IMG/VR virus record: IMGVR_UViG_2974791188_000001
Coordinates: 5,603 to 69,602 of that record
Source: a virus
Length of the DNA stretch: 64,000 bases
Strand: one strand, 5' to 3'
The first letter of the stretch is position 1; each line of letters begins with the position of its first letter. Position numbers and translations under genes: made by a program. Below are positions 413 through 62,511 of this stretch, one piece after another. The notes under the pieces are model-generated. The model was given only the letters and a program-made list of their open reading frames with translations, did no database searches and was not told where the DNA came from.

Positions 413-415
413 GCC

Positions 416-1891: not shown

Positions 1892-3387
1892 TGAGCCAAA
1901 TCCTGTTTCAGGACTACCGTCAGCCCGACCAGTTCTTGTATCTGAACGAAGAGCCTGGGGTTCTAGTCCAAGCTAAGGCGATTTTGGATCGCGCTAAGAA
2001 GATGTGGGCTGATGCTGAGACCGAGACTGCGCGCCTCGACAGTATCGACAAGTGGTACAAGGGCACGCAGGACCCGTATTCGATTCGGGGTGCGGCTTCG
2101 GAGGTTAAGGAACTTAATGAGCTTGCTCGGACGCCGTGGCTGGGGCTGGTTGTTACGACCATTGCGCAGGCCATGTTCGTGGATGGTTACCGTTCCCCGG
2201 TTACCGGTTCTGATGTTCCCGGTCCTTGGAACATCTGGAATGCCAACGGTATGGCTAAGCGACAGATCCCTGTTCATCGCGCGGCCTTGGGATACGGGTA
2301 TTCGTACATTCTCGTAGAGCCTGGGGTTTCGCCGATCACGGGGCAGCCTATGGCCCGCATGCTCGGCATGTCTCCTAAGCGCTTGTTTGCGGTGTACAAC
2401 GATCCTGCTGTTGATGACTGGCCGGTCTACGCGTTGCGCATTGATCGGAGTATCGACGGTAAGACGAATCTGTACCTGTACGACAAGCTGTACAAGCACA
2501 CTATCCGGCGTGTTGACCGGGAGTGGGCGGTGTTGGCTACGGAACGTCACGGTGCGGCTGTCTGCCCGGTTGTGCGGTACACGAACAACTTGGATCTGGA
2601 CGGCCACACGCCTGGTGAGGTTGAACCGTTCATCGTTACTGCTTCGCGTGTCGATAAGTCGACGTTCGATCGTCTGTTGACTCAGCACTACAACTCGTGG
2701 AAGAAGTTCTGGATCGCTGGTCTCGCCGATATTACGTCGGACGAGGAGGCCCGTAAGAAGAAGATCCAGATTCGCCAGGATGGCGTCCTTATCGCTCCTG
2801 ATGTGGATACCAAGTTCGGCACTGTGGATGAGACGAACCTTGACGGGTTTGTTAACGCTATCGGCGCGGACATTGAGCATCTGTCGGCTATCGCACAGCT
2901 CCCTAGTCACCTGTTGACGGGCAAGCTGGTGAACCTGACTTCTGATGCGCTGTCGGCTGCTCGTGCACCGCTTACTCAGAAGGTGTTCGAGCGGCAGGTG
3001 TCGTTCGGCCAGTCCCATGCTCAGGCGTTGCGTCTGGCGTCGGCTATCCAGGGTGACACCACTGGGGCTTCGGATGTGTTGGCGCGTGTGACGTGGCAAG
3101 ACATGGAGATTCGTTCGCTGGCTCAGGCTGCTGACGCTCTCGGCAAGATGGCTGTCCAGTTGGGTATTCCGCGTGTGGCTTTGTGGCGCATGATTCCGGG
3201 TGTCACTCAGGACGATATTGATGAGTGGTCGGAGCATCTGCTGGACGACGATCCGGTGTCGGTGTATCTGCGTGGCTTGAACGCTACGGGCCAGTCTGAT
3301 GGGCCGGGAGATCCGGCTAAGGACAGTCCGGAGGCTGATAAGGGCACTGCCGATCCGGAGAAGGATTCCGCGTCGGGTGGTAGCTGA
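1891..3387 (+). CDS. portal protein
   Basis: 498 aa, ATGA overlap with terminase stop; size and position between terminase and MuF-like gene. Confidence 0.8.
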   Translation: MSQILFQDYRQPDQFLYLNEEPGVLVQAKAILDRAKKMWADAETETARLDSIDKWYKGTQDPYSIRGAASEVKELNELARTPWLGLVVTTIAQAMFVDGYRSPVTGSDVPGPWNIWNANGMAKRQIPVHRAALGYGYSYILVEPGVSPITGQPMARMLGMSPKRLFAVYNDPAVDDWPVYALRIDRSIDGKTNLYLYDKLYKHTIRRVDREWAVLATERHGAAVCPVVRYTNNLDLDGHTPGEVEPFIVTASRVDKSTFDRLLTQHYNSWKKFWIAGLADITSDEEARKKKIQIRQDGVLIAPDVDTKFGTVDETNLDGFVNAIGADIEHLSAIAQLPSHLLTGKLVNLTSDALSAARAPLTQKVFERQVSFGQSHAQALRLASAIQGDTTGASDVLARVTWQDMEIRSLAQAADALGKMAVQLGIPRVALWRMIPGVTQDDIDEWSEHLLDDDPVSVYLRGLNATGQSDGPGDPAKDSPEADKGTADPEKDSASGGS

Positions 3388-4394
3388 TGGCCGAATCCGA
3401 GGATCAGTCGCTATGGGAGTTGCTGGCTGCTTGGCTTATCGGTAAGCACACAGCTAAGCAGGAGGAGATCGCGGACACGGTCCGGAATGGTGTGATCCGC
3501 CAGTTCCGGTCCTTGGACTTCAACAACCTGGACCGCACTCAGGTTCCGTGGATTGAAGCCACTATGCCGTCCGTCCGTTGGGGCTATGAACGTTCCCAGC
3601 AGGCCACTTCTTCGTTCATTACTGACTATCGCAAGATGAGGCTACAGGAAGCCGACGACGAGGATGACGGGATTGATCCGGTCATCACTGCGCGGCAGGC
3701 CGACAGGATTGGTGCTGTCGACCGGTCTGTGGCCGCCCCGTTCAATGAGCAGAAGGCTGCTGTTCAACTGCTCACGACGGGACCGGCTCGGGTTAAGAAG
3801 GCTATGCCGACGCCTGAGTCGGACGCTATGGCTAAGGGCCTTAAGGGGGCTATTGGGGCTGCTATCCAGGTTGCGATGGATGGTGGCCGTGGTGTTGCTG
3901 AGGGTGAGACGCGCCGCGATCAGAAGGTGATTGCTTGGCAGCGGATCACGGACTCTAACCCTTGCTATTTCTGTGCTCTCTTGGCGGCTAATGGGCCGGT
4001 TGAGACGCGCACTATCTACCGCAACAACAAGGCTTGGAATGTGAATCGCCGAACTAAGAAGGCGTTCGTTCCTAATGCTGCGTTTGAGGCTACTGGCGAA
4101 CCTGACAATATCGCTAAGGCCCACGACCATTGCCGCTGCACTCTTGTGCCGGTGTATGGGAATTTCCATGTGTCTGAGGTAGCCAAGGAGGCTGCTGAGC
4201 TGTGGAAAGAGGCTTCTACGGGGGTTTCCCCTAAGGAGGCTTTGAACAACTATCGGCGCGCTTATGACGCGTTGCGTAGGTCTAGTCCGCTGGTGGATGA
4301 GCCGGTGGATACGGACGTTGTTCGCACCGCCCTTTTGGAGAGCGGTAATGCGGATCTTCGGGCTTGGGGTAATCGCCTTAAGCCTGCTTCTTGA
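3387..4394 (+). CDS. MuF-like minor capsid / head morphogenesis protein
   Basis: 335 aa; C-terminal HDHCRCTLVP matches the conserved H-x-N/H-CRC motif of the Phage_Mu_F (SPP1 gp7) family; ATGA overlap with portal. Confidence 0.72.
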   Translation: MAESEDQSLWELLAAWLIGKHTAKQEEIADTVRNGVIRQFRSLDFNNLDRTQVPWIEATMPSVRWGYERSQQATSSFITDYRKMRLQEADDEDDGIDPVITARQADRIGAVDRSVAAPFNEQKAAVQLLTTGPARVKKAMPTPESDAMAKGLKGAIGAAIQVAMDGGRGVAEGETRRDQKVIAWQRITDSNPCYFCALLAANGPVETRTIYRNNKAWNVNRRTKKAFVPNAAFEATGEPDNIAKAHDHCRCTLVPVYGNFHVSEVAKEAAELWKEASTGVSPKEALNNYRRAYDALRRSSPLVDEPVDTDVVRTALLESGNADLRAWGNRLKPAS

Positions 4395-5122: not shown

Positions 5123-6079
5123 ATGACTTTTAACGCCGTTAAGGTTGAAAAGCTGGCTAGCTACGGCTTGGAGCTGTTGCAGCGTCAGATTGTTCTTCCT
5201 AGCCGTATCACCATTAAGAGCGGTGCCGAGTTCCAGGGCGCTCTTGGCGATGCCATCACTATCAAGATCGGTGCTCGCACCAAGGCCCGTCGGGCTAAGA
5301 TCCGCCCCGCTACTGAGGCGGAACGTCAGATCCAGTTCTCGGATCTGACCGAGCAGAAGACCCACGTCACTCTGACTGACCGCATCTACTCGGCTGTTGG
5401 CCTTGAGGATGAAAAGGCCAAGTTGGACGTCGAGGACATTTTCTCGCAGGTCGTTGCTCCGCAGGTTCGGGCTATCGCGGTTGACTACGAGAACCTGTTG
5501 GCTGAGGAAATTGCGGGTGCCCCGTACAAGCACGTTGTGCCTGTCGACCCGGACGAGCCTTACCAGGCTTTCGTTGAGGCTAACCGCCTCTTGGGTCTGT
5601 CGTTCGTTCCGGACGAGAATCGGACCCTGTTGGTTGGTGCCAACTTTGAGGCTGCGCTGCGCAAGTCGCCGCAGTTCATCGCTGCTACCAGCGCTGGTGA
5701 CAACATCGCCGCGAGCCTGTTGGCGCGTGCGACCCTCGGCACCATCAACGGCTACACCGTGGTTAAGAGCTACGCGTTGCCGGCCGATGAGGCTTACATC
5801 ATCCACAAGAGTGCGTTCAGCTCTGCGTGGTTGGCTCCTGTCGTCCCTGACGGCGCTAGCTGGGGTAAGTCGCTGGGTCTGGGTGGCGAAACCGGCATCT
5901 CGCTGACCTGGTTGAAGGATTACGACTTCATGGTTGGCCGCGACCGTTCACTCCTGCACTTCTACACCGGCGTCAACACCACGATTGACGAGCCGGACGT
6001 GAATGCGGACAACGAGATCGTCGCTGCGGGTGGTTTCCTCCGTGGCGTCAAGCTGGTTATGCCTGCTTACAGCTCCTGA
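5123..6079 (+). CDS. major capsid protein (HK97 fold)
   Basis: 318 aa after scaffold gene; composition and length typical of actinophage HK97-like capsid subunits. Confidence 0.85.
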   Translation: MTFNAVKVEKLASYGLELLQRQIVLPSRITIKSGAEFQGALGDAITIKIGARTKARRAKIRPATEAERQIQFSDLTEQKTHVTLTDRIYSAVGLEDEKAKLDVEDIFSQVVAPQVRAIAVDYENLLAEEIAGAPYKHVVPVDPDEPYQAFVEANRLLGLSFVPDENRTLLVGANFEAALRKSPQFIAATSAGDNIAASLLARATLGTINGYTVVKSYALPADEAYIIHKSAFSSAWLAPVVPDGASWGKSLGLGGETGISLTWLKDYDFMVGRDRSLLHFYTGVNTTIDEPDVNADNEIVAAGGFLRGVKLVMPAYSS

Positions 6080-7759: not shown

Positions 7760-8419
7760 ATGGCTAATGGTATTAAGTCTCTTAAGGACAAGAACGACGG
7801 CTTGGTCGTTATGGCGCGCGACGCTGCGGTCATTGCGACTCCTTACGGCGTGGGCAGTATCCCCACTAAGTTGACGGGGCCGGGTGGAAACCTGATTTCG
7901 TTGCCGTCTAACTGGGATTCGTTCGGCGAGCTGGACCAGCAGGCGGGTATCAGCATCACTCCTGATGTTCAGACTGCGAACGTTGATGGCTATGGCTCGA
8001 CCGGCCCGCGACGGACTGTTAAGACCGGCGAGTCGGTGACTCTGGCGTTCGCGGCTCAGGAGTCGCGGAATCTGGTTCTGTCGGCGTTCTGGGATCTCGA
8101 CCTGGACAACACTGTTGCTGATAGCAACGGCGAGTGGCAGGCCAAGAAGAGCTACACGTCGGACATGAAGCTGTGGAGCCTCATCCTGTTGGGTGCGGAC
8201 CAGAACGAGTTTGGCGACGTCTACCCGTACTGGATCTTCCCGAAGGTCATGGTTACTCAGACTGATGCGGTGACCTTGGGTACCGATTCGGCTCTGGTGT
8301 ACCCGTTCACCTTCCAGGCGTTCGAGGACGAGAGCTTTGGTGGCTTCATGGCTATTGGTTCGGCTGGTCCGGGCCAGGCTGGCGTGAACGCTGCTGCTGG
8401 TTTCGGTAACGGTTCCTGA
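7760..8419 (+). CDS. major tail protein
   Basis: 219 aa; upstream of chaperone pair and tape measure; Gly/Ser/Thr-rich beta-type composition. Confidence 0.7.
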   Translation: MANGIKSLKDKNDGLVVMARDAAVIATPYGVGSIPTKLTGPGGNLISLPSNWDSFGELDQQAGISITPDVQTANVDGYGSTGPRRTVKTGESVTLAFAAQESRNLVLSAFWDLDLDNTVADSNGEWQAKKSYTSDMKLWSLILLGADQNEFGDVYPYWIFPKVMVTQTDAVTLGTDSALVYPFTFQAFEDESFGGFMAIGSAGPGQAGVNAAAGFGNGS

Positions 8420-44701: not shown

Positions 44702-45045
44702 AACTGCGTGTTGAGTATGAAATTCCGGAGGATCAGCACGAGCGGGTGCGGTTGCAGGCGAAGCTTTCGGAGCTGGATTCGTTGCTGTCGTGGGTGGAGC
44801 CGTGGAAGCGGACTGTCAGCCTGATTGACGATGATCCGCTACCGGCGTGTGCGACTGAGAAGAAGTCGAGATACCAGCCGGTGTGCGGTAGCTGTCGTGA
44901 GCCGATCCAGGCGACCGAATGGTGGGGCTATCACCAACGCCTGTCCTCATACGTGCATCTCAACGCCCCCTGCTGGCACAACCTGTACGGGGAGGACGTC
45001 AGCGGCCACACGATGATGCTCGGTTCGGGGGGTGTGCCCGCGTGA
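44698..45045 (+). CDS. Cys-containing hypothetical protein
   Basis: 115 aa; TTGA overlap. Confidence 0.4.
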   Translation: MKLRVEYEIPEDQHERVRLQAKLSELDSLLSWVEPWKRTVSLIDDDPLPACATEKKSRYQPVCGSCREPIQATEWWGYHQRLSSYVHLNAPCWHNLYGEDVSGHTMMLGSGGVPA

Positions 45046-45971
45046 CCTTTCTAGTTGCTATGCGGGGGCTTCCCGCGTCAGGCAAGACCACCCGTGCCCG
45101 CGAGATCGCTAAGGAAACCGGGGCTGTCGTTGTCGGCCGCGACTTCGAGCGCTTCCAGATGTTCGGGGAATGGTGGACCGGTAAGAACGAGCATGAGAAT
45201 GCCGTGACGGTTGCGCTTAACGCTAAGGTTCGGGCCTTGCTTAAGGACGATCAATCCGTGATCGTTGATAACACCCACGTTCAGCTTCGCCTCCTCAAAG
45301 CCTGGGCCAAGATTGCGTCCGAATGTGGGGCAACTTTCCACGTCGAGGACGTGAAGACGCCGGTCGAAACCTGCCTGTTCCGCGACATGCAGCGCCAAGC
45401 CAACGGTGAGCGCTGGGTCGGCGAGGACGTCATTAACCGAATGGCTAAGCAAATCAACTGGGGGCAGGTTAAGCCCGTCCCGCCGATCGTGGTCAAGCCG
45501 CTCGAACCGTGGGAAACGCAATGGGATGCACCAGCCGCGATCATCGTCGACATTGACGGCACCCTGGCCCACATGCGGGAAGTCAACGGCACTGTTCGTA
45601 GCCCGTATGACTACAGCCGCGTTCACGAAGATGCCGTAGACCCCGCTATCCGCCAGATGGTCATTGACTATGACGCGATGGACGGAGACGTGATCGTCTG
45701 CTCTGGCCGAGACGATGACTGCCGGGACGTCACCGAAGCATGGCTGTGCGCCCACGGCGTGCCGTTCGATGAGCTGCTGATGCGGCCGAAGGATGCACGG
45801 GACGCTAACGGCAACAAGCTCCCGGACTGGATCGTTAAGTACAACCTGTTCAACGAACACATTCGCGGCCAATACGACGTGGAATATGTGCTCGATGACC
45901 GCAATCAGGTTGTGGACATGTGGCGGGCGCTCGGGCTTAAGTGCCTCCAAGTGCAGCCGGGAGACTTCTGA
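45042..45971 (+). CDS. polynucleotide 5'-kinase / 3'-phosphatase (Pnkp-like)
   Basis: N-terminal P-loop GLPASGKTT kinase; C-terminal HAD phosphatase IIVDIDGTL; GTGA overlap start. Confidence 0.75.
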   Translation: MTFLVAMRGLPASGKTTRAREIAKETGAVVVGRDFERFQMFGEWWTGKNEHENAVTVALNAKVRALLKDDQSVIVDNTHVQLRLLKAWAKIASECGATFHVEDVKTPVETCLFRDMQRQANGERWVGEDVINRMAKQINWGQVKPVPPIVVKPLEPWETQWDAPAAIIVDIDGTLAHMREVNGTVRSPYDYSRVHEDAVDPAIRQMVIDYDAMDGDVIVCSGRDDDCRDVTEAWLCAHGVPFDELLMRPKDARDANGNKLPDWIVKYNLFNEHIRGQYDVEYVLDDRNQVVDMWRALGLKCLQVQPGDF

Positions 45972-46246
45972 TGGCAGACGAACCGAACGTTATCGAACTC
46001 AAGTCGCCTAGCGAGAAGGTCATCACCCTTGTGCATCCCTTCCCGCCTGGTATGGCGGCGCAAGTCCTTGAAGAACTCAAGATCATGCGCGGCGGGTTCG
46101 ACGAAATGATTGGCGACCTCCAAAAGCGTGTCGATCAGATGCGCGCGGCGGGCCTTGTGGAGCCTGCCCCGGTCGCTTACCTCGATGATTACCGGGCACG
46201 TAAGGCCGCTAAGGCGAGTGCTCTTGAACCTAAGGATATTGGTTGA
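45971..46246 (+). CDS. hypothetical protein
   Basis: ATG in TGATG overlap. Confidence 0.45.
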   Translation: MADEPNVIELKSPSEKVITLVHPFPPGMAAQVLEELKIMRGGFDEMIGDLQKRVDQMRAAGLVEPAPVAYLDDYRARKAAKASALEPKDIG

Positions 46247-47541
46247 TTCTCGACGACCCTAAGAACAACAACTATGCCGTGACTGTTGTGCGTGTCCCGG
46301 CTACCTATGATCTGGACGGCTTGGACAACCTGGTGGGTGTCAAGGTGTTCAATTCGCAGATCCTCACTCAGCGTGACGGTGTGGAGCCGGGTGAGTTGCG
46401 CCTGTACTTCCCGGCCGAGGTTCAGATTTCGGCCGAGTATGCCGAGTACAACAGCCTGTACAGCAGCGGCGCGGGCCTTAACCGTGACCCGGAAGCGAAG
46501 GGCTACTTGGCTAAGAACCGACGCGTGCGGGCTATCAAGCTTCGCGGTCACCGTTCGGACGCACTCCTGATGCCGCTCGATTCGCTCAAGTGCTTCACTG
46601 GCCGCTACGACTACCTGCAAGAGGGCGACACGTTCGACGTGATCGAGGGCCACGAGGTTGTCCGCAAGTTCGAGCTACCCCGCAACGAACCGAAGGCCGG
46701 CGCAACTAAGCTCGCTAAGGTTCTTAAGCGGGTAGACAAGGCTCTGTTCCCTGAGCACCTGTCGACCGACAACTTTTTCCGCAACTCGCACCTGCTCGAC
46801 GCGAAGCGTGAGGTTGTCATCACCCAGAAGTTGCACGGCACGAGCATCCGCGTCGGCCGTGTCCCGGTGCGCCGCGAGAAGGGCCGCTGGGAACGTTTCC
46901 TCAACCGCCTGGGCGCTGCCACCCCGGACTTTGCTCACGAGCCGGTATTCGGCTCCCGCAAGGTCATCAAGGAGGCCGACAACAGCCGCCAGAACCACTA
47001 CTACGGTTCGGACATTTGGACCCGTAAGGGTGCTGAGATTGTCGCGGACATTCCGGACGGCTTCATTGTTTACGGCGAGCTGGTCGGTTGGACCGAGGAC
47101 GGTTCTCCGTTGCAGAAGGGCTACACCTACGACGTGCCTAAGGGCCAGTCGGAGCTGTACGTGTATCGGGTTGCACGTATCGACGTGAACCGGACGCTCA
47201 CGGATCTGCCTTGGGACGGTGTTAAGCAGTTCTGCAAGGAACGCGGCTGGAAGCATGTTCCGGAGATTGATCGGATCATTCCGGACTTCTGGGAAGCTTT
47301 GGTCGGCGAGACGATGGTCGAGTTTGTTGAGGACATGATGGACCGCCGCTACACCGAGGCTTACCACAGCCCCATCGACAAGCCGGTCGCGCTGTCGGAC
47401 CCCAAGACTGTCGATGAAGGCGTATGCATCCGTCAGGACGCAATCGCCCCGCTCATCCTCAAGGCTAAGGCCCCGAAGTTCTTGCAGCACGAAACCAAGC
47501 AGCTCGATAAGGGCGAAGTCGACTTGGAGAGCGCGGCCTAG
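46243..47541 (+). CDS. ATP-dependent RNA ligase (Rnl2-like, KxHG motif I)
   Basis: nucleotidyltransferase motif I ITQKLHGTS (cf. T4 Rnl2 KIHGTN); TTGA overlap start. Confidence 0.6.
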   Translation: MILDDPKNNNYAVTVVRVPATYDLDGLDNLVGVKVFNSQILTQRDGVEPGELRLYFPAEVQISAEYAEYNSLYSSGAGLNRDPEAKGYLAKNRRVRAIKLRGHRSDALLMPLDSLKCFTGRYDYLQEGDTFDVIEGHEVVRKFELPRNEPKAGATKLAKVLKRVDKALFPEHLSTDNFFRNSHLLDAKREVVITQKLHGTSIRVGRVPVRREKGRWERFLNRLGAATPDFAHEPVFGSRKVIKEADNSRQNHYYGSDIWTRKGAEIVADIPDGFIVYGELVGWTEDGSPLQKGYTYDVPKGQSELYVYRVARIDVNRTLTDLPWDGVKQFCKERGWKHVPEIDRIIPDFWEALVGETMVEFVEDMMDRRYTEAYHSPIDKPVALSDPKTVDEGVCIRQDAIAPLILKAKAPKFLQHETKQLDKGEVDLESAA

Positions 47542-47732
47542 TGCAGAACGGGCAATCGCAGTGTTACGTGGCGTTCCCCGGCCACCAATTTGACGTGGGA
47601 TCGTTGCGCCTCGCATACGACCAGCTCATTGGCATGGGAGTTCCACGTACCCGAAAGCTGACAATCGAATCCGTGCCCAAGGTGGGCGACGAGAAGTGCG
47701 ACGGGATCGCATTTGTGGAGGTAGTTCCGTGA
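47541..47732 (+). CDS. hypothetical small protein
   Basis: 63 aa. Confidence 0.35.
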   Translation: MQNGQSQCYVAFPGHQFDVGSLRLAYDQLIGMGVPRTRKLTIESVPKVGDEKCDGIAFVEVVP

Positions 47733-48568
47733 CCGTACATCTTTGGGCGCAAAGCCTCGACGACAAAGAGCTACACCCCGTCCACCCATTCCAGTTCCCT
47801 GGCGGCGAATGGCACATCCAACTCGCATTCGACGACCCCAAGCGGTCCTACCAGTGGATCGCAGTCGTCTACGGGGCCAGCGCCGAAGACCTCGTGAAGG
47901 CAAGCCTGCTGGCCGACATTGCGTTGGAACGCGAGGAGCACTCCGTACTGCTCATCCCCTACCTGCCTGCGGCACGGGCAGACCGGGGAGTCCCGCTGGG
48001 ATTGAGTGTGTACGGCGGGATCATTAACGTTGCCTGCTTCGGTGACGTCGTCACCCTGGACGCGCACAACCCGGAAGCTGCCTACCGGGAAGTCAACGGG
48101 CTGGTGAATCTGTCGGCTACCCCGCTGGTCACCGCGACCGTCCAGTACCAGGACACGTTCACCGGGGTCATCGCACCCGACAAGGGGGCCGCGGATCGGG
48201 CAGGAGACGTAGCCCGCGCGCTCGGCGTCGAGCTGGTCGTTGCAGACAAGGCCCGCGACTTCGACACCGGACGGATCACTGGTCTTAGCTGCCCGAAAGT
48301 CGACCCTAAGGGCAACTACCTGGTGGTCGATGACATTTGTGACGGCGGCGGCACCTTCATGGGACTGGCCGAAGCGACCGGCCTGCCGCAAGATCGACTG
48401 TCCCTGTGGGTCACGCACGGCATCTTCTCGGGTAACGCGGCCAACCTGCTCAAGCACTACTACAAGGCTGTTTACACCACCGACTCTCACCCCGGTTCGG
48501 GGCAGCTCGGCATGTGGACGGTCAAAACCCCCACGTGGGCATACATGTTCAGAAAGGTCCAAGCATGA
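47729..48568 (+). CDS. ribose-phosphate pyrophosphokinase (Prs) homolog; candidate Adps of NARP1
   Basis: PRPP-binding loop LVVDDICDGGGT and Prs-like topology; GTGA overlap start. Confidence 0.72.
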   Translation: MTVHLWAQSLDDKELHPVHPFQFPGGEWHIQLAFDDPKRSYQWIAVVYGASAEDLVKASLLADIALEREEHSVLLIPYLPAARADRGVPLGLSVYGGIINVACFGDVVTLDAHNPEAAYREVNGLVNLSATPLVTATVQYQDTFTGVIAPDKGAADRAGDVARALGVELVVADKARDFDTGRITGLSCPKVDPKGNYLVVDDICDGGGTFMGLAEATGLPQDRLSLWVTHGIFSGNAANLLKHYYKAVYTTDSHPGSGQLGMWTVKTPTWAYMFRKVQA

Positions 48569-50043
48569 CCAAGTTCGCACCCATCGCTGCACTGATGCAG
48601 ACCGATGCTTACAAGCTTGACCACCGCAACCAGTACCAGTTGGCCGGCCGCGTTAGCCGTGTCTACTCGAACTACACCAACCGTAAGAGCCGCATCGACG
48701 GGGTCGACCACGTTGTGCACTTCGGGTTGCAGGCGTTCATCCAGAAGAACCTTGTGGAAGCGTTCGAGCCGTTCTTCGCGGCCGACGAGGATCTGGTGTG
48801 CGACCTGTACGAGGAGCGGGTTACGCAGATCCTTGGCCCGAACACGATTGGTTCGGATCACATTCGGGCCTTGCACCGTAAGGGCTACCTGCCGCTTCGG
48901 TTCTCTGCTCTGCCGGAAGGTACGCCGGTTCCGATCCGGGTTCCGTCGTTCGTCGTGGAGAACACCGAGGACGAGTTCTTTTGGCTGACCAACTATGTGG
49001 AGACGGCGCTTAGCGCTGGCGTGTGGCAGGCGTCTACGTCTGCGACGATTGCCCGCGAGTACCGGAAGATCCTCGACCAGGCCGCCGAGGCTACCGGTGG
49101 TGTCCGTGAGGCTGTCGACTTCCAGTGCCACGACTTCTCTTACCGGGGCATGTCGTCTCAGGAGTCGGCGCAGCTTAGCGGCGCTGCCCACCTGCTGTCG
49201 TTCAGCGGCACCGATTCGCTGGTGGCCTTGGACTGGATTGACCGCTACTACGGCGGCGAGTACGTCGCGGGATCAGTTCCAGCCACCGAACACTCGGTGA
49301 TGTGCACCGGCATTGAAGCCGTGGGCGAACAGGAGTTGTTCTCTAAGCTGCTGGACCTGTACCCGACTGGCATCTTCTCGGTGGTGTCTGACACGTTCGA
49401 CCTGTGGACGGTCCTGACCGAGTACCTGCCAGCACTTAAGGACAAGATCCTGGCGCGCGACGGCAAGCTGGTGATCCGCCCGGACTCTGGCGACCCGGAG
49501 AAGATCATTTGCGGAGACCCGGACGCCGAGACGGGGACCGCCGAATGGTTTGGTGTCGTCCGGCTGCTTCGGATGGCGTTTGGTTGCACCTGGAATGAGG
49601 CTGGCTTCCGCGAGTTGAACTCGCATGTAGGGGTCATCTACGGCGACTCCATCACCCTCGAACGCGCTAAGAGCATCACCGCGCGACTCGAATCTATGGG
49701 CTACGCATCCACCAACGTCGTGTTTGGTGTCGGCTCATACACCTACCAGCACAACACCCGCGACACGTTCGGCTCCGCGATGAAAGCCACATGGGCTGAG
49801 GTCGACGGTAAGGGCGTCAACCTGCTTAAGGACCCCATCACTGATGACGGCACGAAGAAGTCGGCTACGGGACGTCTGGCAGTCGTTAACAGCGAGTACG
49901 GCGGAGACCTCAAGCTCATCGAACGGGCAACCCCCGAAGCTGAGCAGTGGAGCCTCCTCAAGCCCATCTGGGAAAACGGACAGTTCGTACAGCGAGTTAC
50001 CTTCGCCGATGTACGGGCAACCCTGGCTAACGCGGGGGCTTGA
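48565..50043 (+). CDS. nicotinamide phosphoribosyltransferase (NAMPT/NadV) homolog; candidate Namat of NARP1
   Basis: TDAYKLDHRNQY...FSYRGMSS...SGTDS NAMPT family signatures; ATGA overlap start. Confidence 0.78.
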   Translation: MTKFAPIAALMQTDAYKLDHRNQYQLAGRVSRVYSNYTNRKSRIDGVDHVVHFGLQAFIQKNLVEAFEPFFAADEDLVCDLYEERVTQILGPNTIGSDHIRALHRKGYLPLRFSALPEGTPVPIRVPSFVVENTEDEFFWLTNYVETALSAGVWQASTSATIAREYRKILDQAAEATGGVREAVDFQCHDFSYRGMSSQESAQLSGAAHLLSFSGTDSLVALDWIDRYYGGEYVAGSVPATEHSVMCTGIEAVGEQELFSKLLDLYPTGIFSVVSDTFDLWTVLTEYLPALKDKILARDGKLVIRPDSGDPEKIICGDPDAETGTAEWFGVVRLLRMAFGCTWNEAGFRELNSHVGVIYGDSITLERAKSITARLESMGYASTNVVFGVGSYTYQHNTRDTFGSAMKATWAEVDGKGVNLLKDPITDDGTKKSATGRLAVVNSEYGGDLKLIERATPEAEQWSLLKPIWENGQFVQRVTFADVRATLANAGA

Positions 50044-50044
50044 G

Positions 50045-50347
50045 TTGGCTGACGGTAGCTGGTGGGCCTTGGAGAATCCGGGCCGATACAGGATCGAATC
50101 ACTCAAGTGCGACGTTGAGGTCGACTGGCCTGCGTACTCATTCGGCTCTCTCGAATCGCCACGGCCCCGGAAGTATCTGACACTAATCGAACTGACTAAC
50201 GGCCGAACCACCACGGTGCTCAAGGCGTACACCGACCCGGACACGGACGAGAGCATTGTGGCGGCTTACGGCAAGGGCCAGCTTAAGGAGCTAAGCGTCT
50301 ACCTCGATGAGAAGCCCGACGCTTTCTCGTGGCGGAAGATCCACTAG
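50045..50347 (+). CDS. hypothetical protein
   Basis: TTG 2 nt after NAMPT stop; ORF open from 49844. Confidence 0.4.
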   Translation: MADGSWWALENPGRYRIESLKCDVEVDWPAYSFGSLESPRPRKYLTLIELTNGRTTTVLKAYTDPDTDESIVAAYGKGQLKELSVYLDEKPDAFSWRKIH

Positions 50348-51227
50348 TTGGGTTACGGAGCTGCCGCACAATACCCCGGCGACACCCGCGTCTGGGTATG
50401 GGACTACACAGGCCCCAAGGGACAACGGGGCCATTGGGAGGACAAAACTGAACACTCGGAAACTAGCTCTCGACAACCTCATAATGCTGGGGGTAGCAGG
50501 CTCCCAGCTCTACGGGACACAGCTTGACGACGGCGACAATGACCAAATGGGGGTGTGCATCGAGCCTCCAAGTCACGTCATCGGGCTAAGCCAATTCGAG
50601 CAATGGCAGTACCACAGTGCAGGCAACGGCGTCAGGTCCGGAAGTGAAGACCTCGACGTCACCGTGTACTCGCTACGGAAGTGGACCCGGCTAGCAGAAC
50701 AGGGCAACCCGACTGTCCTGCTGCTCGGGTTCACCCCCGATGAACTGGTCCTTGAGGACTCGTTCTGGGGTGCGCAACTCCGCTCCAATATGGACATGTT
50801 CATGTCCCGGCAGGCCGGATCGCGGTTCCTCGGCTACCTCGACTCCCAGCGCAAGCAGATGCTAGGGCTTACCGGCCGTAAGCATTCCAACCGCCCGGAG
50901 CTGGTTGAGCAGTACGGCTACGACACCAAGTTTGCCTACCACGCCGTCAGGCTCGGTATGCAGGGTGTGGAGTACCTGACCACCGGGCACATGGAACTGC
51001 CCATGAAGCAGGACTACCGGGACTACCTCATCGACATTCGGCAAGGCCGGGAGTCGAAAGAAGACGTGGTGACGGTCATCAACCTGTACATCGACCTACT
51101 GCGCAAGCTCAAGCATTCGCCGGATCTGCCGCCACGCGCTAACCGGGTGGAGATCGACGCCTGGCTTGAGGTCATGCACGAAACGTTCTGGACGTCGCAG
51201 GGGCGGACACTCGCCAATGTGGCTTGA
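50307..51227 (+). CDS. Pol-beta superfamily nucleotidyltransferase
   Basis: GVAGSQLYGTQLDDGDNDQMGV fits hG[GS]-x10-DxD; helical C-terminal domain. Confidence 0.5.
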   Translation: MRSPTLSRGGRSTSWVTELPHNTPATPASGYGTTQAPRDNGAIGRTKLNTRKLALDNLIMLGVAGSQLYGTQLDDGDNDQMGVCIEPPSHVIGLSQFEQWQYHSAGNGVRSGSEDLDVTVYSLRKWTRLAEQGNPTVLLLGFTPDELVLEDSFWGAQLRSNMDMFMSRQAGSRFLGYLDSQRKQMLGLTGRKHSNRPELVEQYGYDTKFAYHAVRLGMQGVEYLTTGHMELPMKQDYRDYLIDIRQGRESKEDVVTVINLYIDLLRKLKHSPDLPPRANRVEIDAWLEVMHETFWTSQGRTLANVA

Positions 51228-51537: not shown

Positions 51538-51609
51538 TCCCGTATAGCTTAATTGGCAGAGCGTCCGGTTGTTACCCGGATGGTCCAGGTTCGATTCCTG
51601 GTGCGGGAG
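51538..51609 (+). tRNA. tRNA-Asn (GTT)
   Basis: manual cloverleaf: acceptor tcccgta/tgcggga, D-arm gctt-aattggca-gagc, anticodon loop ttGTTac, T-arm ccagg-ttcgatt-cctgg. Confidence 0.75.
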
Positions 51610-51725
51610 CTTAGAGTAGATTGTTTCGGCTCCGTTTCGTAGAACACTCAGACGTCAATCCAAACGGGCAGCACTCGAAATCACTTACCCATGTGGGTGT
51701 CACTGGTTCATTGTTCGGGTGATCT

Positions 51726-51796
51726 GGGGCGATAGTTTAGTGGTAGAACGGCGGTCTCCAAAGCCGCTCGCCGGGGTTCGATTCCTCGTCGCCTCG
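51726..51796 (+). tRNA. tRNA-Trp (CCA)
   Basis: acceptor ggggcga/tcgcctc, anticodon loop ctCCAaa, T-arm cgggg-ttcgatt-cctcg. Confidence 0.75.
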
Positions 51797-51860
51797 CCGC
51801 GCTTGGCTGTGCGCGTAAACAGTCCGCCGCTGCCGACCGGCGTAAAACGGTACGGCTTCC

Positions 51861-51933
51861 GCCTTAGAAACCGAATTGGCTAGGTGCCTGACTTCCAATC
51901 AGGATTTTGCGGGTTCAAGTCCCGTCTAAGGCT
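51861..51933 (+). tRNA. tRNA-Gly (TCC)
   Basis: perfect 7-bp acceptor gccttag/ctaaggc, anticodon loop ctTCCaa, T-arm gcggg-ttcaagt-cccgt; short D-stem. Confidence 0.7.
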
Positions 51934-52036
51934 CAATGGGACGCCAGAGATAAACGCTGGTGCGGTAGAAGCTGACCCGATTCAGAAACCCGCCGATTCC
52001 CGATCACCGATGGCTGCCGGTATATGCAGTTTCTAA

Positions 52037-52112
52037 CTCTCCGTAGCTCAGTTGGTCTTAGAGCAGGGCACTCTTAATGCTCGGGTCGCAGGTTCGAGTC
52101 CTGCCGGGGAGA
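52037..52112 (+). tRNA. tRNA-Lys (CTT)
   Basis: acceptor ctctccg/cggggag, D-arm gctc-agttggtctta-gagc, anticodon loop ctCTTaa, T-arm gcagg-ttcgagt-cctgc. Confidence 0.75.
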
Positions 52113-52150
52113 CGTAGTGGGAGACGGGGGTTCGATTCCCTCCATGCGCG
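52113..52150 (+). pseudogene. tRNA-like 3' fragment (T-arm plus acceptor-like) without a matching 5' half
   Basis: ggggg-ttcgatt-ccctc T-arm-like element 38 nt after tRNA-Lys; no complementary acceptor 5' strand found. Confidence 0.3.
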
Positions 52151-52358
52151 CTGTAGCTTAATGGTAGAGCACCCACGCTTTGCAAATATGTTCCGGATGG
52201 CCCGCTCAAGGGATACGGCGCATAGAGCTAAGAGGTTGTAAGCCCGTAAAGCCCAACCCTTAGTCTCCGCAGGTTCGCCACCGAACTACCTGCGTTATCA
52301 AAACCCACGTGAATTGAGGCCGAAGGGCCGGTGGGCCTTAGTTGGAAGGGTGGACCCA

Positions 52359-52441
52359 GGGCTTGTGGCGGAATTGGCAGACGCGCCGGATTCAAAATCC
52401 GGTACTCATTGAGTGTGTGGGTTCGAGTCCCACTAAGCCCA
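52359..52441 (+). tRNA. tRNA-Leu (CAA)
   Basis: acceptor gggcttg/taagccc, anticodon loop ttCAAaa, long variable arm, T-arm gtggg-ttcgagt-cccac. Confidence 0.75.
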
Positions 52442-52442
52442 C

Positions 52443-52655
52443 ATGGAAAACACTGACATTCACAACCGGTTCGCCTTCCACCCGGCCACCACGGCTGAAA
52501 AGAAGGGTGCCCACGGCAGTATCCGAGAGGCAATGCTGTCGACCGCGCTCTACGTGAACAACAACGTTCCGGACGGCCGCGAAAAGTCTCTGGCTATCAC
52601 CGCCCTGGAAGAGGCTATGTTCTGGGCCAACGCTGCCATCGCACGAGCAGTGTAG
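52443..52655 (+). CDS. hypothetical protein
   Basis: 70 aa, starts 2 nt after tRNA-Leu. Confidence 0.45.
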   Translation: MENTDIHNRFAFHPATTAEKKGAHGSIREAMLSTALYVNNNVPDGREKSLAITALEEAMFWANAAIARAV

Positions 52656-52882
52656 TGGCAATCGTCCTGGGGGTCGGTGACGTCGACAAGATCACCGATC
52701 CCGGCCACCTAGAAGCGCTCAGACGCCTCGAAATGATCGCCGCCTACACAGTGGACGACCACGAGATGGTCGACCTGAACGCTATGGCACTTAGCGGTGC
52801 GTGGGCCACTCCCGCGTACCAACCATCCGAAATTGGCTCCAAGGCTGGAAAGAAGCTTCGGGTCATGTATTCCAAGAAGTAG
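52655..52882 (+). CDS. hypothetical protein
   Basis: 75 aa; GTG in TAGTG overlap. Confidence 0.4.
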   Translation: MAIVLGVGDVDKITDPGHLEALRRLEMIAAYTVDDHEMVDLNAMALSGAWATPAYQPSEIGSKAGKKLRVMYSKK

Positions 52883-52891
52883 GAGAATCCT

Positions 52892-53263
52892 TTGGGTTTC
52901 CGTGATCTGTTTACTCCCCGTACTAAGCGTCAGAAGAAGGCTAAGGGTAAGGGTGAGCAGTTGGGCCGCGCGATCGGCGAACTGACTGTGAGTGCGCAGG
53001 GCTTTACCGAGTCCGTCATCACTCCCCGCGTGGGTGGCAAGCTCCCCATGTCGAACGGCTCCCCGTTGGAGTCTCGTGGCCCGGTTCGGCCGGCTCCTAA
53101 GCCCCGTAGCTACGAAAGCCCCAGCTACTCGGGCTACGACCATTCGCCCGCGATCGCTGCTGCTGCGGTGTCGTCTAGCTACTCGTCGCCTTCGTACAGT
53201 TCGTCGTGTGATTCCAGCTCGTCTAGCTCGTTCTCGTCTGACTGTGGCGGCGGCGGATTCTGA
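52892..53263 (+). CDS. hypothetical protein with Ser-rich low-complexity C-terminus
   Basis: SSYSSPSYSSSCDSSSSSSFSSDCGGGGF. Confidence 0.4.
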   Translation: MGFRDLFTPRTKRQKKAKGKGEQLGRAIGELTVSAQGFTESVITPRVGGKLPMSNGSPLESRGPVRPAPKPRSYESPSYSGYDHSPAIAAAAVSSSYSSPSYSSSCDSSSSSSFSSDCGGGGF

Positions 53264-53436
53264 TGCTTGAGGCCATCATTGCGGGCTTCTTCACCACCCT
53301 ACTAGTGGGGGTATTCGTCGGATTCGTCTACTGGATGCTCAGTCCGCCGTCCTGGGTCGGCGGTGGCGGCACCTACAAGGGGGGGTTTGATCTGAGTTCG
53401 CCGCAAGGCGTCGCCCTGCTGGTGGCCGCGACATGA
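53263..53436 (+). CDS. tiny membrane protein (57 aa), followed by a 33-aa TM micro-ORF 53433..53534
   Basis: hydrophobic helix; ATGA coupling between the two micro-ORFs. Confidence 0.3.
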   Translation: MLEAIIAGFFTTLLVGVFVGFVYWMLSPPSWVGGGGTYKGGFDLSSPQGVALLVAAT

Positions 53437-53576
53437 TAACCACCGTCCTTAGCGGGATCGGCGCTATCGCGCTCCTGTATGTGCTCGGCTACATACTCGT
53501 CGGGGCCTGGTGCCTTTGGAGCCTAGGCCGATGATCTAACGGGTTTGGTCACGTTCCCTCATCTAAACGTGGCTCT

Positions 53577-53658
53577 ACTAGGTGATGCCCCAATGGCGGG
53601 GCAGCGGGCTGTAACCCCGTGGCGTTTTACGCAGGCAGGTTCGATCCCTGTCACCTAG
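53577..53658 (+). tRNA. tRNA-Tyr (GTA)
   Basis: perfect acceptor ctaggtg/cacctag, anticodon stem gcggg/cccgt loop ctGTAac, long variable arm, T-arm gcagg-ttcgatc-cctgt. Confidence 0.7.
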
Positions 53659-53725
53659 ACGTTTCACCTTCTTCTACGGGAGACCAACCTAACTCTGCTC
53701 CGTCAGGGGGAAGGTGACCTACCAC

Positions 53726-59112: not shown

Positions 59113-59577
59113 ATGGGAAGGCACTCTAAGCCGGTAGAAGTCGATGATCGCGGCCACCCACGCCTCAATCGTGTCAACCTTGAGGTTCTTGGGGACCGAC
59201 AATCCGGTAAGACCGAAACCATCCTTAGGGCACTGTTCTATGACTTGGTAGTTGAGGATAAGCAAGTCTTGTATCTGTGCCGCAATCAGTTGCAGGCCCA
59301 GGAAGTGTTCCACCGGTTCGATTCCATGCTTCCACGCACTAAGTTCATCCGGCGTAGAAGCTTAGGCACCTTGGATATGCGCGCGGAATGCGGCAGGGGA
59401 CGCATCTGCTTCCGGTCTATCAATGGCAGCGGCCACAGGGGCGTGTCGGTTGACACTGTTGTGCTCGACGACTGCGGACCCATCCCGGACGACGACTGGT
59501 GCTCACTGTTCATGTCAACCATCCAGTCCGATGAACCGAGAATGATCGTTATATCGACAGGGGGTGCGCCGCAATGA
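59113..59577 (+). CDS. small P-loop NTPase
   Basis: Walker A GDRQSGKTE and Walker B VVLDDCG; GGAGGA RBS. Confidence 0.45.
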   Translation: MGRHSKPVEVDDRGHPRLNRVNLEVLGDRQSGKTETILRALFYDLVVEDKQVLYLCRNQLQAQEVFHRFDSMLPRTKFIRRRSLGTLDMRAECGRGRICFRSINGSGHRGVSVDTVVLDDCGPIPDDDWCSLFMSTIQSDEPRMIVISTGGAPQ

Positions 59578-60188
59578 GGCTAATACTGGGCACATATCGA
59601 AAACGGGCCTACATCGAGCGTGCGCTAGCGTCCATCGACAAGCACCTTAAGGGTGTCACGGATATTGCTTTCGTGGACGACTCCGGGGATGCGGAGCATT
59701 CCGAGTGGTTGCGCCAGTACGGGCATGTGGTCGAGACCGGCGCTAAGGGATACAACGCGGCCATGAACGCTGTGTGTGAGACTGCTCAGGGCCAAGAGTT
59801 CATGTTCTGGGAAGAGGACTTCACCATGCTTGAGCCGGTGAACCTCACCCACATGTCGGAGATCCTGTTTCACCGCCCCTACCTCGCTCAGATCGCGCTA
59901 CTTCGCGGGCCTTGGTTCGACGTAGAGCACCAGCACGGGGGCCTACTTGAGGCTCTGGTGGCCCAAGGCCGAAAGGTCGAGCTGGTCGATGGTGTGCACG
60001 AGCAGACCGCAACGTTTACCTGCAACCCGTCGGTGTGGCGCGGGAGCGTGGCGGCAGCCGGTTGGCCTGCTGGCCGCTGGTCGGAGGAAAGGAAACGCGA
60101 TGAGCTGCTAAGGCAGGGTTATCGGTTCGGGTTTATGGAAGGGGTGAAGGTTGACCATGACGGAGAACGCACCGGCCACGACTACTAA
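59574..60188 (+). CDS. glycosyltransferase (GT-A fold)
   Basis: N-terminal Rossmann-like LILGTYRKRAYIERAL...FVDDSGD (DxD-type) ; ATGA overlap. Confidence 0.55.
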   Translation: MRLILGTYRKRAYIERALASIDKHLKGVTDIAFVDDSGDAEHSEWLRQYGHVVETGAKGYNAAMNAVCETAQGQEFMFWEEDFTMLEPVNLTHMSEILFHRPYLAQIALLRGPWFDVEHQHGGLLEALVAQGRKVELVDGVHEQTATFTCNPSVWRGSVAAAGWPAGRWSEERKRDELLRQGYRFGFMEGVKVDHDGERTGHDY

Positions 60189-60495
60189 CTACTTTGGGCA
60201 GGTAATCGGGCCGGGGACCATTGTTGCTGTCAATGTGTTGCAGCATCGGACCACTACGCTTCGGCTTGGGGTGGTTGCGTCTATCGGCAAGTCTGGTAAG
60301 ACGGCTCACGTCCATTGGGTGTTCAGTCGCCGAGGGGCTAATGGTAGGTCTGAGTGGTCTCGCACCGAGAAGAGCAATGTTCCAATCGTTAAGCTCATCC
60401 GGCCGGACCTTTCGGGCATTGACCCCGAGATTGCGTATGCCATCGCTAGTAAGCATCAGGAGTTGATGCACACGGGGGATGCTGATGACGCTTGA
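60157..60495 (+). CDS. hypothetical protein
   Basis: 112 aa. Confidence 0.4.
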   Translation: MTENAPATTTNYFGQVIGPGTIVAVNVLQHRTTTLRLGVVASIGKSGKTAHVHWVFSRRGANGRSEWSRTEKSNVPIVKLIRPDLSGIDPEIAYAIASKHQELMHTGDADDA

Positions 60496-61120
60496 GGTTT
60501 GCATCCCCTGGCGGGCGACACCCGAACGTAAACCGGCATTCGCGCGGGTAACCGACTTCTGGCTACACCACGACTTCGACCTGATTACCGGCGACAGTGA
60601 TCGTAGGTCTAAAGCGTTCTCGATCACCCAAGCCCGAAACAAGGCTGTGAACGCCTCTAAGGGCGATGTGGTGGTACTTGCTGACGCGGACACCATCGTG
60701 GACATTGCGGCCGTCAGGGAAGCAATCAGCACGGTTAAACCGGGGGAAGTGATCTACCCGTTCGCTACTTACCGGCATATCCCGGCCGATACCGTCTCGA
60801 TCAGCGATCTGCACGCAGCTAAGCCCGACCAGGAATACCGCAACAGTGTTGGTGGGATCATGGTCACCCTTAAGGACACCTACTGGGAGCTTGGGGGCAT
60901 GGATGAACGATTCGAGCCTAGGTGGGGTTACGAGGATTCGGCATTCAAGCTCGTAGCGGAAACGTTGGGAACTGTTCGACGTCTCCCCGGAACGATCTAC
61001 TCGTTCAACCATCCGGCCGACCGTGACCTTAGCTACGACAATCCGAACCGTCACCGGTTCGACCTGTATCGGGCATGCGCGGGTAAGCCGAATCTGATGC
61101 GAGAGCTGGTCAAGCGTTGA
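60479..61120 (+). CDS. glycosyltransferase (GT-A fold)
   Basis: VVVLADADTIVD DxD motif and GT-A topology. Confidence 0.6.
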   Translation: MLMTLEVCIPWRATPERKPAFARVTDFWLHHDFDLITGDSDRRSKAFSITQARNKAVNASKGDVVVLADADTIVDIAAVREAISTVKPGEVIYPFATYRHIPADTVSISDLHAAKPDQEYRNSVGGIMVTLKDTYWELGGMDERFEPRWGYEDSAFKLVAETLGTVRRLPGTIYSFNHPADRDLSYDNPNRHRFDLYRACAGKPNLMRELVKR

Positions 61121-61833
61121 ACCTGAGCCTTTGCGTACTTACGGTTCCTAGCCGGGAGGAGCAGGCCCGCCGTCTCGCCGAAGAGCTGGGGGCGTCACTG
61201 CACATCGACCACTACGGCAGTCCGACTAAGGCTCACGCTAACGCTTGGTATGAGGCCCTAGCTGATGCCCGGTGCAAGTCCGCGCACTACACCGAAGACT
61301 GGGTGGGGGTTATCGAGGATGACGCGATACTTGCTGACGGGGCTACTAGGGATGACCTGATGCACATGCTGCGGAAGGCCCCTGCCGATATTGTGTCCGG
61401 CTACCTAGGTCGAGCTAAGCCGGCCGATACCCAACCCCACATCGAGCAGGCCCTTAAGCATGACCCGCACTACGTCATCACCTACCGATTGTTGCACCAT
61501 GTGGCGGTATTCATGCGGGCTAAGCATGTCGCTAAGGCTGCTGCCTACTTGCGTGAACACCCCAAGTTCCCGTGCGATGAGGCGCTAGGGATCTGGGCGC
61601 AGACAGCGGGCGAACCTGTTGCTTACAGTGTGCCGTCTCAGTTCGATCACATGGACTCCGAGCCTGTGATCTTAGGTAGGCCCGTAACCACCGGTGACCC
61701 GGCAGAACCGCGGATCGCATGGGTGCTTGGTGACCGGGACGATTGGGACGGTAAGCGGATACAGCTACTCGACCAGCCCACACGTAACCGGTACGGGAGA
61801 CGGTACGGGCAGCGTCCAGCACAGCCCGCATGA
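61117..61833 (+). CDS. glycosyltransferase-like (GT-A, GT25-like)
   Basis: WVGVIEDDAIL acidic motif; TTGA overlap. Confidence 0.5.
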   Translation: MNLSLCVLTVPSREEQARRLAEELGASLHIDHYGSPTKAHANAWYEALADARCKSAHYTEDWVGVIEDDAILADGATRDDLMHMLRKAPADIVSGYLGRAKPADTQPHIEQALKHDPHYVITYRLLHHVAVFMRAKHVAKAAAYLREHPKFPCDEALGIWAQTAGEPVAYSVPSQFDHMDSEPVILGRPVTTGDPAEPRIAWVLGDRDDWDGKRIQLLDQPTRNRYGRRYGQRPAQPA

Positions 61834-62178: not shown

Positions 62179-62511
62179 ATGGGGAAACACAAGGGAAGAT
62201 CCGGCCGACCTTACCGGACTAAGCGCGCCAATTTCAGGCGTAAGTGTGCTGCCGAGAACCGGCCATGTTCGCTATGCGGTAAGCCTATCGACTACACGCT
62301 AACGGGTAAGAATCCGATGGCGTGGACGTTGGAACACATCATTCCGGTATCGGAGCTTAAGCGCATTGACCCTAACCATCGCCTGCTTGAGGCTGTGTCG
62401 AATTTTGCGGCTGCTCATTTCCTCTGTAACCAACGTAAGCAGGATGGGGGTTACCGGGATAAGGGTACGGCGGGTCCGGCTCCTGCTGCTAGCTCTAGGC
62501 GGTGGACGTGA
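62179..62511 (+). CDS. HNH endonuclease
   Basis: CSLCGK...WTLEHIIPV...HFLCNQRK HNH motifs; GGGAG RBS. Confidence 0.65.
   Translation: MGKHKGRSGRPYRTKRANFRRKCAAENRPCSLCGKPIDYTLTGKNPMAWTLEHIIPVSELKRIDPNHRLLEAVSNFAAAHFLCNQRKQDGGYRDKGTAGPAPAASSRRWT

Follow-up and report, generated by a model that had tools for sequence, protein, structure and literature searches.

Which molecules are modified by the glycosyltransferases (GTs) that are encoded in the right arm of the Gordonia phage Octobien14? The window analyzed is a stretch of 64,000 nucleotides (nt) of the virus record IMGVR_UViG_2974791188_000001 (positions 5,603 to 69,602), and the five genes in question, gp117 to gp121, occupy its positions 59113-61833. 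Octobien14 (MH976515.1 / NC_060134.1), a temperate siphophage of Gordonia terrae of the subfamily Deeyouvirinae, cluster DU, was found to be 100% identical to the 3.3 kb around these genes; window positions are obtained by subtracting 5602 from record positions. It is proposed here, with a probability of about 0.6, that gp118, gp120, and gp121 form a protein O-glycosylation cassette for the C-termini of virion proteins, those of the tail tube and probably also of the capsid, which would draw on host nucleotide sugars. As judged from sequences and structure models, Octobien14 is thus a predicted addition to the type of virion glycosylation known from the phages Che8 and Corndog. The genes had been annotated previously, since GenBank already lists 117 as AAA-ATPase, 118 as glycosyltransferase, 119 as hypothetical protein, 120 as galactosyltransferase, and 121 as glycosyltransferase, and the corresponding inference has been standard since 2023. 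What is added here is the match to the Che8/Corndog enzyme pair, the terminal Ser and Gly-Ser residues as evidence for the tail tube as acceptor, the exclusion of gp117 and gp119 as pathway members, and homologues of gp118 and gp120 (about 60% identical) in an extracellular contractile injection system (eCIS) locus of Mycolicibacterium.

The glycosyltransferases and their counterparts in Che8 and Corndog

By fold or family, and at levels that greatly exceed chance, gp118, gp120, and gp121 are GT-A enzymes, and sugar transfer is their predicted activity. All three match PHROG glycosyltransferase families, with E-values of 1.9e-34 for gp118, 1.6e-49 for gp120 (PHROG 1721), and 4.5e-44 for gp121. 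Sequence searches of the PDB with gp117, gp118, gp120, and gp121 returned nothing significant, and fold prediction was therefore used for gp118 and gp121. The soluble GT2-like enzyme gp118 (204 amino acids [aa], positions 59574-60188, plus strand) misses the cutoff of the Pfam GT2 family by 0.1 bit (7.3e-5), and its AlphaFold2 model, built from a 38-sequence alignment, has a predicted local distance difference test (pLDDT) score of 95. A Foldseek search with this model identified the GT2-type GT-A enzymes RmlT, SpsA, TarP, and GalNAc-T2, at about 4e-8 and TMq values of 0.6-0.7. Pfam was the means by which the fold of gp120 (211 aa, 60485 or 60479 to 61120, plus strand) was assessed: it matches Glyco_transf_7C above the curated cutoff (8.9e-8) and GT2 at 1.5e-4, and it has a beta4GalT-like C-terminal region, an upstream D37, and a DxD motif at D67-A68-D69, with D69 and H176 invariant in the alignment. 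The third enzyme, gp121 (238 aa, 61117-61833, plus strand, TTG start), had no match in Pfam. Its AlphaFold2 model has a pLDDT of 75 (10 sequences), with high values for residues 1-180 and values below 50 for residues 181-213, approximately, and the last few. The GT-A matches of this model in Foldseek, at 1.4e-6 to 1e-3, were Mimivirus R655, POMGNT1, GnT-I, COLGALT1, and PBCV-1 A64R, of which POMGNT1, COLGALT1, A64R, and R655 glycosylate proteins or virus particles. Residues of note in gp121 are D31 and the invariant E67-D68-D69, H127, D154, and D177-H178-x-D180. Comparison of the three GT families with hhalign, using shallow alignments, was not significant and gave no sign of recent paralogy.

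These data bear on an earlier sequence-only reading of the locus, which had described three consecutive GT-A genes preceded by a small P-loop protein. Its open reading frame (ORF) coordinates and motifs were all recovered, namely, GDRQSGKT and VVLDD in gp117, FVDDSGD in gp118, LADADTIVD in gp120, and IEDDAIL in gp121, and the GT-A assignment is borne out by models and Foldseek for gp118 and gp121 and by Pfam for gp120. FVDDSGD had been taken as the DxD motif of gp118; the motif is present, but it corresponds to the nucleotide-binding DDxS motif of GT2 enzymes (D35-D36-S37), and the DxD position is held by the invariant E80-E81-D82. Nor are the three genes consecutive, because the annotated gp119 (112 aa, 60157-60495, plus strand), which is not a GT, separates gp118 from gp120.

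A clear link emerges between two of these enzymes and GTs connected with virion glycosylation in Mycobacterium phages. Local blastp comparisons gave gp121 an identity of 34% with Che8 gp110 across residues 4-210, nearly its full length (2.5e-27), and of 37% with Corndog gp38 (2.7e-18), and gp120 matches Che8 gp109 (1e-16) and Corndog gp37 (9e-22) at 28-30% identity. In Che8 and Corndog the gp120-like gene comes immediately ahead of the gp121-like one, an order that is also seen in the C1 phage Bxz1, and the two overlap by 4 nt in Octobien14. A passage of PMC12363180 that cites Freeman 2023 names Che8 gp110 and Corndog gp38 as the GTs without which capsids are not glycosylated, and other papers, in citing Freeman et al. 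2023 (Cell Host Microbe 31:1216), mention glycans on the proteins of capsid and tail tube in Che8, Corndog, and Myrna virions. The Octobien14 cassette shares with Che8 gp108-110 and Corndog gp35-38 an adjacent pair of GT-A enzymes in the same order, the soluble nature of the enzymes, a third, variable GT upstream, and capsid and tail-tube proteins that end in Ser, usually in Gly-Ser. The glycans of the Mycobacterium phages are reportedly O-linked at the C-termini of the capsid and tail-tube subunits, and putative GTs are said to occur in some Gordonia phages.

Differences between these systems are equally apparent. The host of Octobien14 belongs to the genus Gordonia, and virion glycosylation is predicted there from genes. 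The third GT, gp118, is unrelated to the third GTs of the other two phages, Che8 gp108 and Corndog gp36. In Che8, gp108 is a fusion of a GT2 with a TylF-like methyltransferase domain, and Corndog has a methyltransferase in gp35, whereas the Octobien14 cassette lacks an O-methyltransferase; given this lack and the unrelated third enzyme, the glycan would probably be a different one. The cassette of Octobien14 is, unlike the others, interrupted by an unrelated small ORF, and it is found after lysin B in the right arm, as opposed to a place beside the capsid gene in Corndog and at the genome end in Che8.

Within Octobien14 the cassette is part of a long rightward lytic operon, and it is kept in all seven DU-cluster phages. 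The junctions from gp117 to gp121 all overlap (ATGA, 32 nt, 11 nt, and TTGA). Scanning for promoters and terminators revealed none on either side of the cassette, and the counts were below the shuffled expectation, so that the cassette does not have the look of an autonomous moron. No transmembrane segments were found in gp117-gp121, the maximum 19-residue Kyte-Doolittle hydropathy being 0.63-1.26, no flippase or membrane GT genes are annotated near the cassette, and no nucleotide-sugar synthesis genes are annotated in the Octobien14 genome. Scans of the five proteins gave zero matches in PADLOC and, in NCBIfam, only weak N-terminal GT2-type matches.

A further observation concerns the rate of change. 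Sequence identities between Octobien14 and Syleon are 90% for gp118, 94% for gp120, and 69% for gp121, and those between Octobien14 and Neville are 71%, 68%, and 43%, respectively. The faster divergence of gp121 than of its neighbours is paralleled by variation in the C-terminal tails of the capsid proteins (AYSS, DTSA, and PDPS).

Terminal Ser and Gly-Ser of virion proteins

The sequence-only reading had proposed to look for Ser/Thr-rich C-terminal tails on capsid and major tail proteins. This search was positive in a sharper form, since the tail protein of Octobien14 ends in Gly-Ser and its capsid protein in Ser-Ser, comparable to Che8, Corndog, and Marvin. The major tail (tube) protein gp22 (7760-8419, plus strand), the predicted main acceptor, has a Gly/Ala-rich C-terminal tail with the end ...GFGNGS-COOH, and the major capsid protein gp17 (5123-6079, plus strand), a possible second acceptor, ends in ...MPAYSS-COOH, both read from the translations. 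Among other phages with GTs, the capsid and tail proteins end, respectively, in ...KTGS and ...SDGS in Che8, ...LVGS and ...KGDS in Corndog, ...PQGS and ...GFGGS in Marvin (cluster S), ...DTSA and ...AAGS in Syleon, ...PDPS and ...AAGS in Neville, and ...PDPS and ...AEGS in Rabbitrun. In contrast, the GT-less phages Denise, Poushou, BPs, MargaretKali, and Stickynote have capsid proteins that end in A, A, A, A, and L and tail proteins that end in P, A, A, P, and P, respectively. When four GT-carrying siphophage lineages were compared with these five GT-less phages, a small control set, terminal Ser was found in 8/8 capsid and tail proteins of the former and in 0/10 of the latter (Fisher p = 2.3e-5), and terminal Gly-Ser in 6/8 and 0/10 (Fisher p = 1.5e-3), the definition of the motif having been drawn from the sequences of this same analysis.

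The motif is stronger in the tail protein than in that of the capsid. Each of the four tail proteins examined from the DU cluster has a Gly-Ser end (GNGS, AAGS, AAGS, and AEGS), and the Marvin tail protein is a 31% homologue of that of Octobien14. The tail proteins of MargaretKali and Stickynote, GT-less homologues of gp22, end in ...PTP and ...VTP. The motif is also infrequent: only the capsid and tail proteins end in Gly-Ser among 12 structural-region proteins of Che8 (2/12), as do only 3 of the approximately 142 annotated coding sequences of Octobien14. Apart from gp22, these are the portal protein (1891-3387; ...SGGS) and gp135 (...KQGS), a small hypothetical protein encoded on the minus strand outside the window (record positions 70951-71190). 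The portal protein was considered as an acceptor, but its end is not conserved in the Neville portal protein (...STSGD), and the match was treated as a coincidence.

The proposed cassette could work as follows. During lytic growth, the three enzymes, all of them soluble GT-As, would work post-translationally in the cytoplasm of the host with its nucleotide sugars and, either ahead of assembly or in its course, build a short glycan at the very C-terminal end of virion subunits. The most likely acceptor would be gp22 (...GNGS-COOH), and gp17 (...YSS-COOH) is a probable second one. The first sugar may be added to the terminal Ser by gp121, which corresponds to Che8 gp110 and Corndog gp38, and the chain might then be extended by gp120 and gp118, with this order and the nature of the sugars being presumed. 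The tail, and perhaps the head as well, would thereby acquire a coat of glycans that may alter surface properties and antibody recognition to the presumed benefit of the phage.

Several points weigh against this proposal. Virion glycosylation in Gordonia phages is a prediction from genes, and the exact residue that is glycosylated in Che8 has been taken from secondary citations. The GT-negative status of the controls is based on tblastn for four of the five and, for Stickynote, on taxon counts only. The capsid protein of Octobien14 ends in Ser-Ser and not in Gly-Ser, and that of Syleon ends in ...TSA. The nearest structures of gp118 include the wall-teichoic-acid GTs TarP, TarS, and RmlT, a resemblance that makes a non-protein acceptor possible for gp118. 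The C1 myophages carry homologues of the three GTs, yet in Amataga, the C1 phage examined, the capsid protein (...LRKA) and the sheath protein (...TTSF) lack a terminal Ser, and a 155-aa ORF after the sheath gene, presumed to encode the tube protein, ends in ...TTTV. Either the motif is not universal, or the target in C1 phages is a different one.

Cluster C1 is the sole other phage group in which each of the three GTs was found to have a homologue, with the gene order kept, as exemplified by Bxz1 gp226-231. The identities are 39% between gp228 and gp118, 45% between gp229 and gp120 (3.6e-57), and 34% between gp231 and gp121. The C1 phages differ from Octobien14 in that they are myoviruses, have a gene for a PnuC-like transporter between the second and third GT genes, and possess an extra GT2 (gp226). 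The Amataga protein gp99 (L021:4627-5169; 180 aa), encoded just before the capsid gene, ends in ...GGLAGGS and belongs to PHROG 2783, which is of unknown function; given its C-terminus, gp99 is a candidate acceptor in C1 phages.

Another example of a terminal Gly-Ser close to such genes is provided by a metagenomic contig (L032) that contains a Corndog-type cassette of three GTs at positions 254-3683, within a tail module and between connector/tail genes and the tape-measure gene. Two genes upstream, an ORF of 206 aa with the PHROG label 'head-tail adaptor' has the end ...WTGS, and the ORF that immediately precedes the cassette (175 aa) has the end ...DSKS. As a tentative extension of the above proposal, a free C-terminal ...Gly-Ser-COOH could be a short, portable recognition tag for protein O-glycosyltransferases of the gp110/gp121 family, and the presence of a GT module in an eCIS locus could point to glycosylated eCIS particles. 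If this were so, glycosylated virion proteins would be predictable from sequence across actinobacteriophages, and in Octobien14 this would apply to the tail tube, to the capsid perhaps, and possibly to further proteins with a Gly-Ser end. The correlation itself, if it holds, offers a cheap sequence predictor of modified virion proteins and hints at a tag with which glycosylated phage particles might be engineered. Confirmation of virion glycosylation in Octobien14 would extend it from Mycobacterium phages to Gordonia phages, namely, Octobien14 and the six other DU-cluster phages, which is of relevance as glycan coats affect the antibody recognition of therapeutic phages.

Other possible targets of the enzymes

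The sequence-only reading had offered virion decoration and modification of a host surface glycan side by side, by way of a possible three-step pathway. The first is favored by the match to the Che8/Corndog pair and by the Ser ends. The second would have gp118, gp120, and gp121 act on an envelope glycan, such as arabinogalactan, a lipoglycan, or a surface glycolipid, in order to block superinfection, promote release, or change the surface, and is considered unlikely. A precedent for it exists in prophage TarP and Gtr systems, and Octobien14 is itself temperate, with an integrase and an immunity repressor. The structural similarity of gp118 to RmlT, TarP, and TarS would fit, as would a match in NCBIfam, though weak, that covers the N-terminus of a dolichyl-phosphate hexose transferase and the occurrence of gp118 and gp120 homologues in bacterial chromosomes. 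However, these bacterial homologues were located in the locus of a phage-tail-like (eCIS) particle and not in a cell-wall locus. Host-surface modification is also disfavored by the absence, as judged from hydropathy and annotation, of transmembrane segments, a flippase, or a GtrC-like partner, and by the location of the genes in the lytic rightward operon, distant from the immunity/integration region and without a promoter or terminator signal of their own. In addition, gp120 and gp121 match a pair that is tied to virion glycosylation, and an envelope target would leave the correlation with C-terminal Ser unexplained.

TarP and the Gtr-type GTs are, like the Octobien14 enzymes, phage-encoded GT-A enzymes of the GT2 type, and TarP is a structural neighbour of gp118, but they are expressed from prophages and act on wall polymers of the host, and the Gtr systems depend on membrane proteins, which are absent from the Octobien14 cassette. 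PBCV-1 A64R and Mimivirus R655 share the GT-A fold with gp121 and are virus-encoded, cytoplasmic GTs that act on the virus's own particle, although they belong to eukaryotic giant viruses, are only 8-13% identical to gp121, and have other acceptors and glycans.

A second alternative, likewise improbable, retains protein glycosylation but divides the cassette. According to it, gp120 and gp121 would be the protein-glycosylation core, and gp118 would either use an acceptor of its own or serve as an extender that can be dispensed with, so that the enzymes would not form a simple three-step chain. For gp118, 119 homologues were found, with occurrences in C1 myophages and the eCIS locus of Mycolicibacterium; blastp matched it to Bxz1 gp228 only and found no counterpart of it in Che8 or Corndog, whose third GTs are other proteins. 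The eCIS locus has gp118 and gp120 homologues together without a gp121 homologue, and gp121 diverges much faster than the other two (69% versus 90-94% in the comparison with Syleon). These features would be expected of a divided cassette, but homologues of gp118, gp120, and gp121 co-occur in all DU-cluster phages and in about 200 records of cluster C1 phages, and in Octobien14 the three genes belong to one overlapping operon.

That the GTs glycosylate phage DNA with hypermodified bases in order to evade restriction is highly improbable: the PHROG label 'glucosyltransferase' of gp121 and upstream genes for nucleotide metabolism (ThyX, ribonucleotide reductase, and MazG) would agree with it, but the annotation of the genome has no gene for a dCMP/dUMP hydroxymethylase or for any other base hypermodification, the top 50 Foldseek PDB matches of either model (gp118 or gp121) contain no DNA glucosyltransferase and consist of sugar-polymer and protein glycosyltransferases, with some nucleotidyltransferases for gp121, and the Che8 and Corndog homologues are linked to protein glycosylation.

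gp117, gp119, and neighbouring genes

The small P-loop protein gp117 (154 aa, 59113-59577, plus strand) was considered as part of the pathway, a role that was rejected here. It matches the Pfam family Terminase_6N above the cutoff (7.3e-6, residues 29-145) and PHROG terminase-large-subunit families (1.5e-9), has Walker A (GDRQSGKT), Walker B (VVLDD), and motif-III-like (ISTGG) sequences, and weakly matches Octobien14's own terminase large subunit (residues 154-208). It lacks an RNase-H-like nuclease domain and is not encoded beside small terminase or portal genes; the true terminase large subunit is gp13 (416-1891), which lies beside the small terminase subunit and the portal protein. An exhaustive search of 1.84 billion representatives returned only 28 representative clusters of the gp117 family, almost all of 115-160 aa. 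A gp117 homologue is found a short way upstream of the GT cassette in all seven DU-cluster phages, and two Gordonia phages devoid of GTs, Ohgeesy (L013:7091-7863) and Denise (L016:44257-44984), have one as well, which an HNH endonuclease gene directly follows at the right genome end. For Denise, no GT homologue was detected by tblastn. In Neville (L012:3103-4016) the HNH gene is located between the gp117-type ATPase and the GTs, and in Octobien14 the GT cassette sits between gp117 and the HNH gene gp124 (62179-62511, plus strand; Pfam HNH 1.4e-5). As gp117 homologues occur beside HNH endonucleases in phages that are devoid of GTs, gp117 is probably outside the glycosylation pathway. This distribution suggests that gp117 is a rare stand-alone, terminase-ATPase-like mini-protein that accompanies HNH endonucleases. 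The original neighbour of the gp117-type ATPase was likely the gp124-type HNH endonuclease, and the two may be an accessory pair for packaging or end processing.

The product of gp119 was also rejected as a pathway component. It was detected by tblastn in Octobien14 only and belongs to PHROG 2596, of unknown function, and its slot is filled by unrelated small ORFs in Syleon (gp125, L011:2752-3081) and Neville (gp121, L012:4661-4951). The ORFs in this slot are alike only over the first 10 residues or so, which overlap the end of the gp118 gene, and the gap between gp118 and gp120 looks like a hot spot for ORF replacement.

The Mycolicibacterium eCIS locus was identified on a Logan contig of DRR827108 (L026:1356-8518), which encodes homologues of gp118 (62% identity) and gp120 (60% identity) as well as a third GT2. 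These GT genes are located between sheath/tube genes (Phage_sheath_1, T4_gp19) and an eCIS_core gene, and the eCIS locus is flanked by ordinary-looking cellular genes, namely, a GntR/aminotransferase regulator and an HSP70-family gene. The same arrangement is present on three further contigs (L027-L029), and the protein is named as from Mycolicibacterium aubagnense. The sheath protein ends in ...LAGQSSS. The position of the GT genes in this locus raises the possibility of glycosylated eCIS particles.

Metagenomic contigs with gp118 homologues were searched for capsid or tail genes close by, but the structural genes are outside the 10-kb flanks. On one phage contig (L031:7836-10681) a gp118 homologue is found 1.2 kb downstream of a gene for an NAD-dependent sugar epimerase/dehydratase, so that some relatives also encode a nucleotide-sugar-modifying enzyme that is absent from Octobien14.

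Genes with possible roles in NAD metabolism and RNA repair are found upstream of the cassette. At positions 47729-50043, gp90, annotated as 'phosphoribosyl pyrophosphate transferase', is adjacent to gp91, a member of the NAPRTase/NAMPT family (Pfam 9.5e-38), and the two resemble a counter-defence pair of phage NAD+ reconstitution (NARP1-type). The PnuC-like transporter encoded within the GT cluster of the C1 phages is a nicotinamide riboside transporter. Genes for RNA-related enzymes and six tRNA genes are clustered at 45042-47541, 50307-51227, and 51538-53660. The polynucleotide kinase gp86, the RNA ligase gp88, and gp93, a nucleotidyltransferase of the RlaP family (Pfam 9e-29), are encoded close together and look, together with the six tRNA genes, like a module for tRNA repair and replacement.

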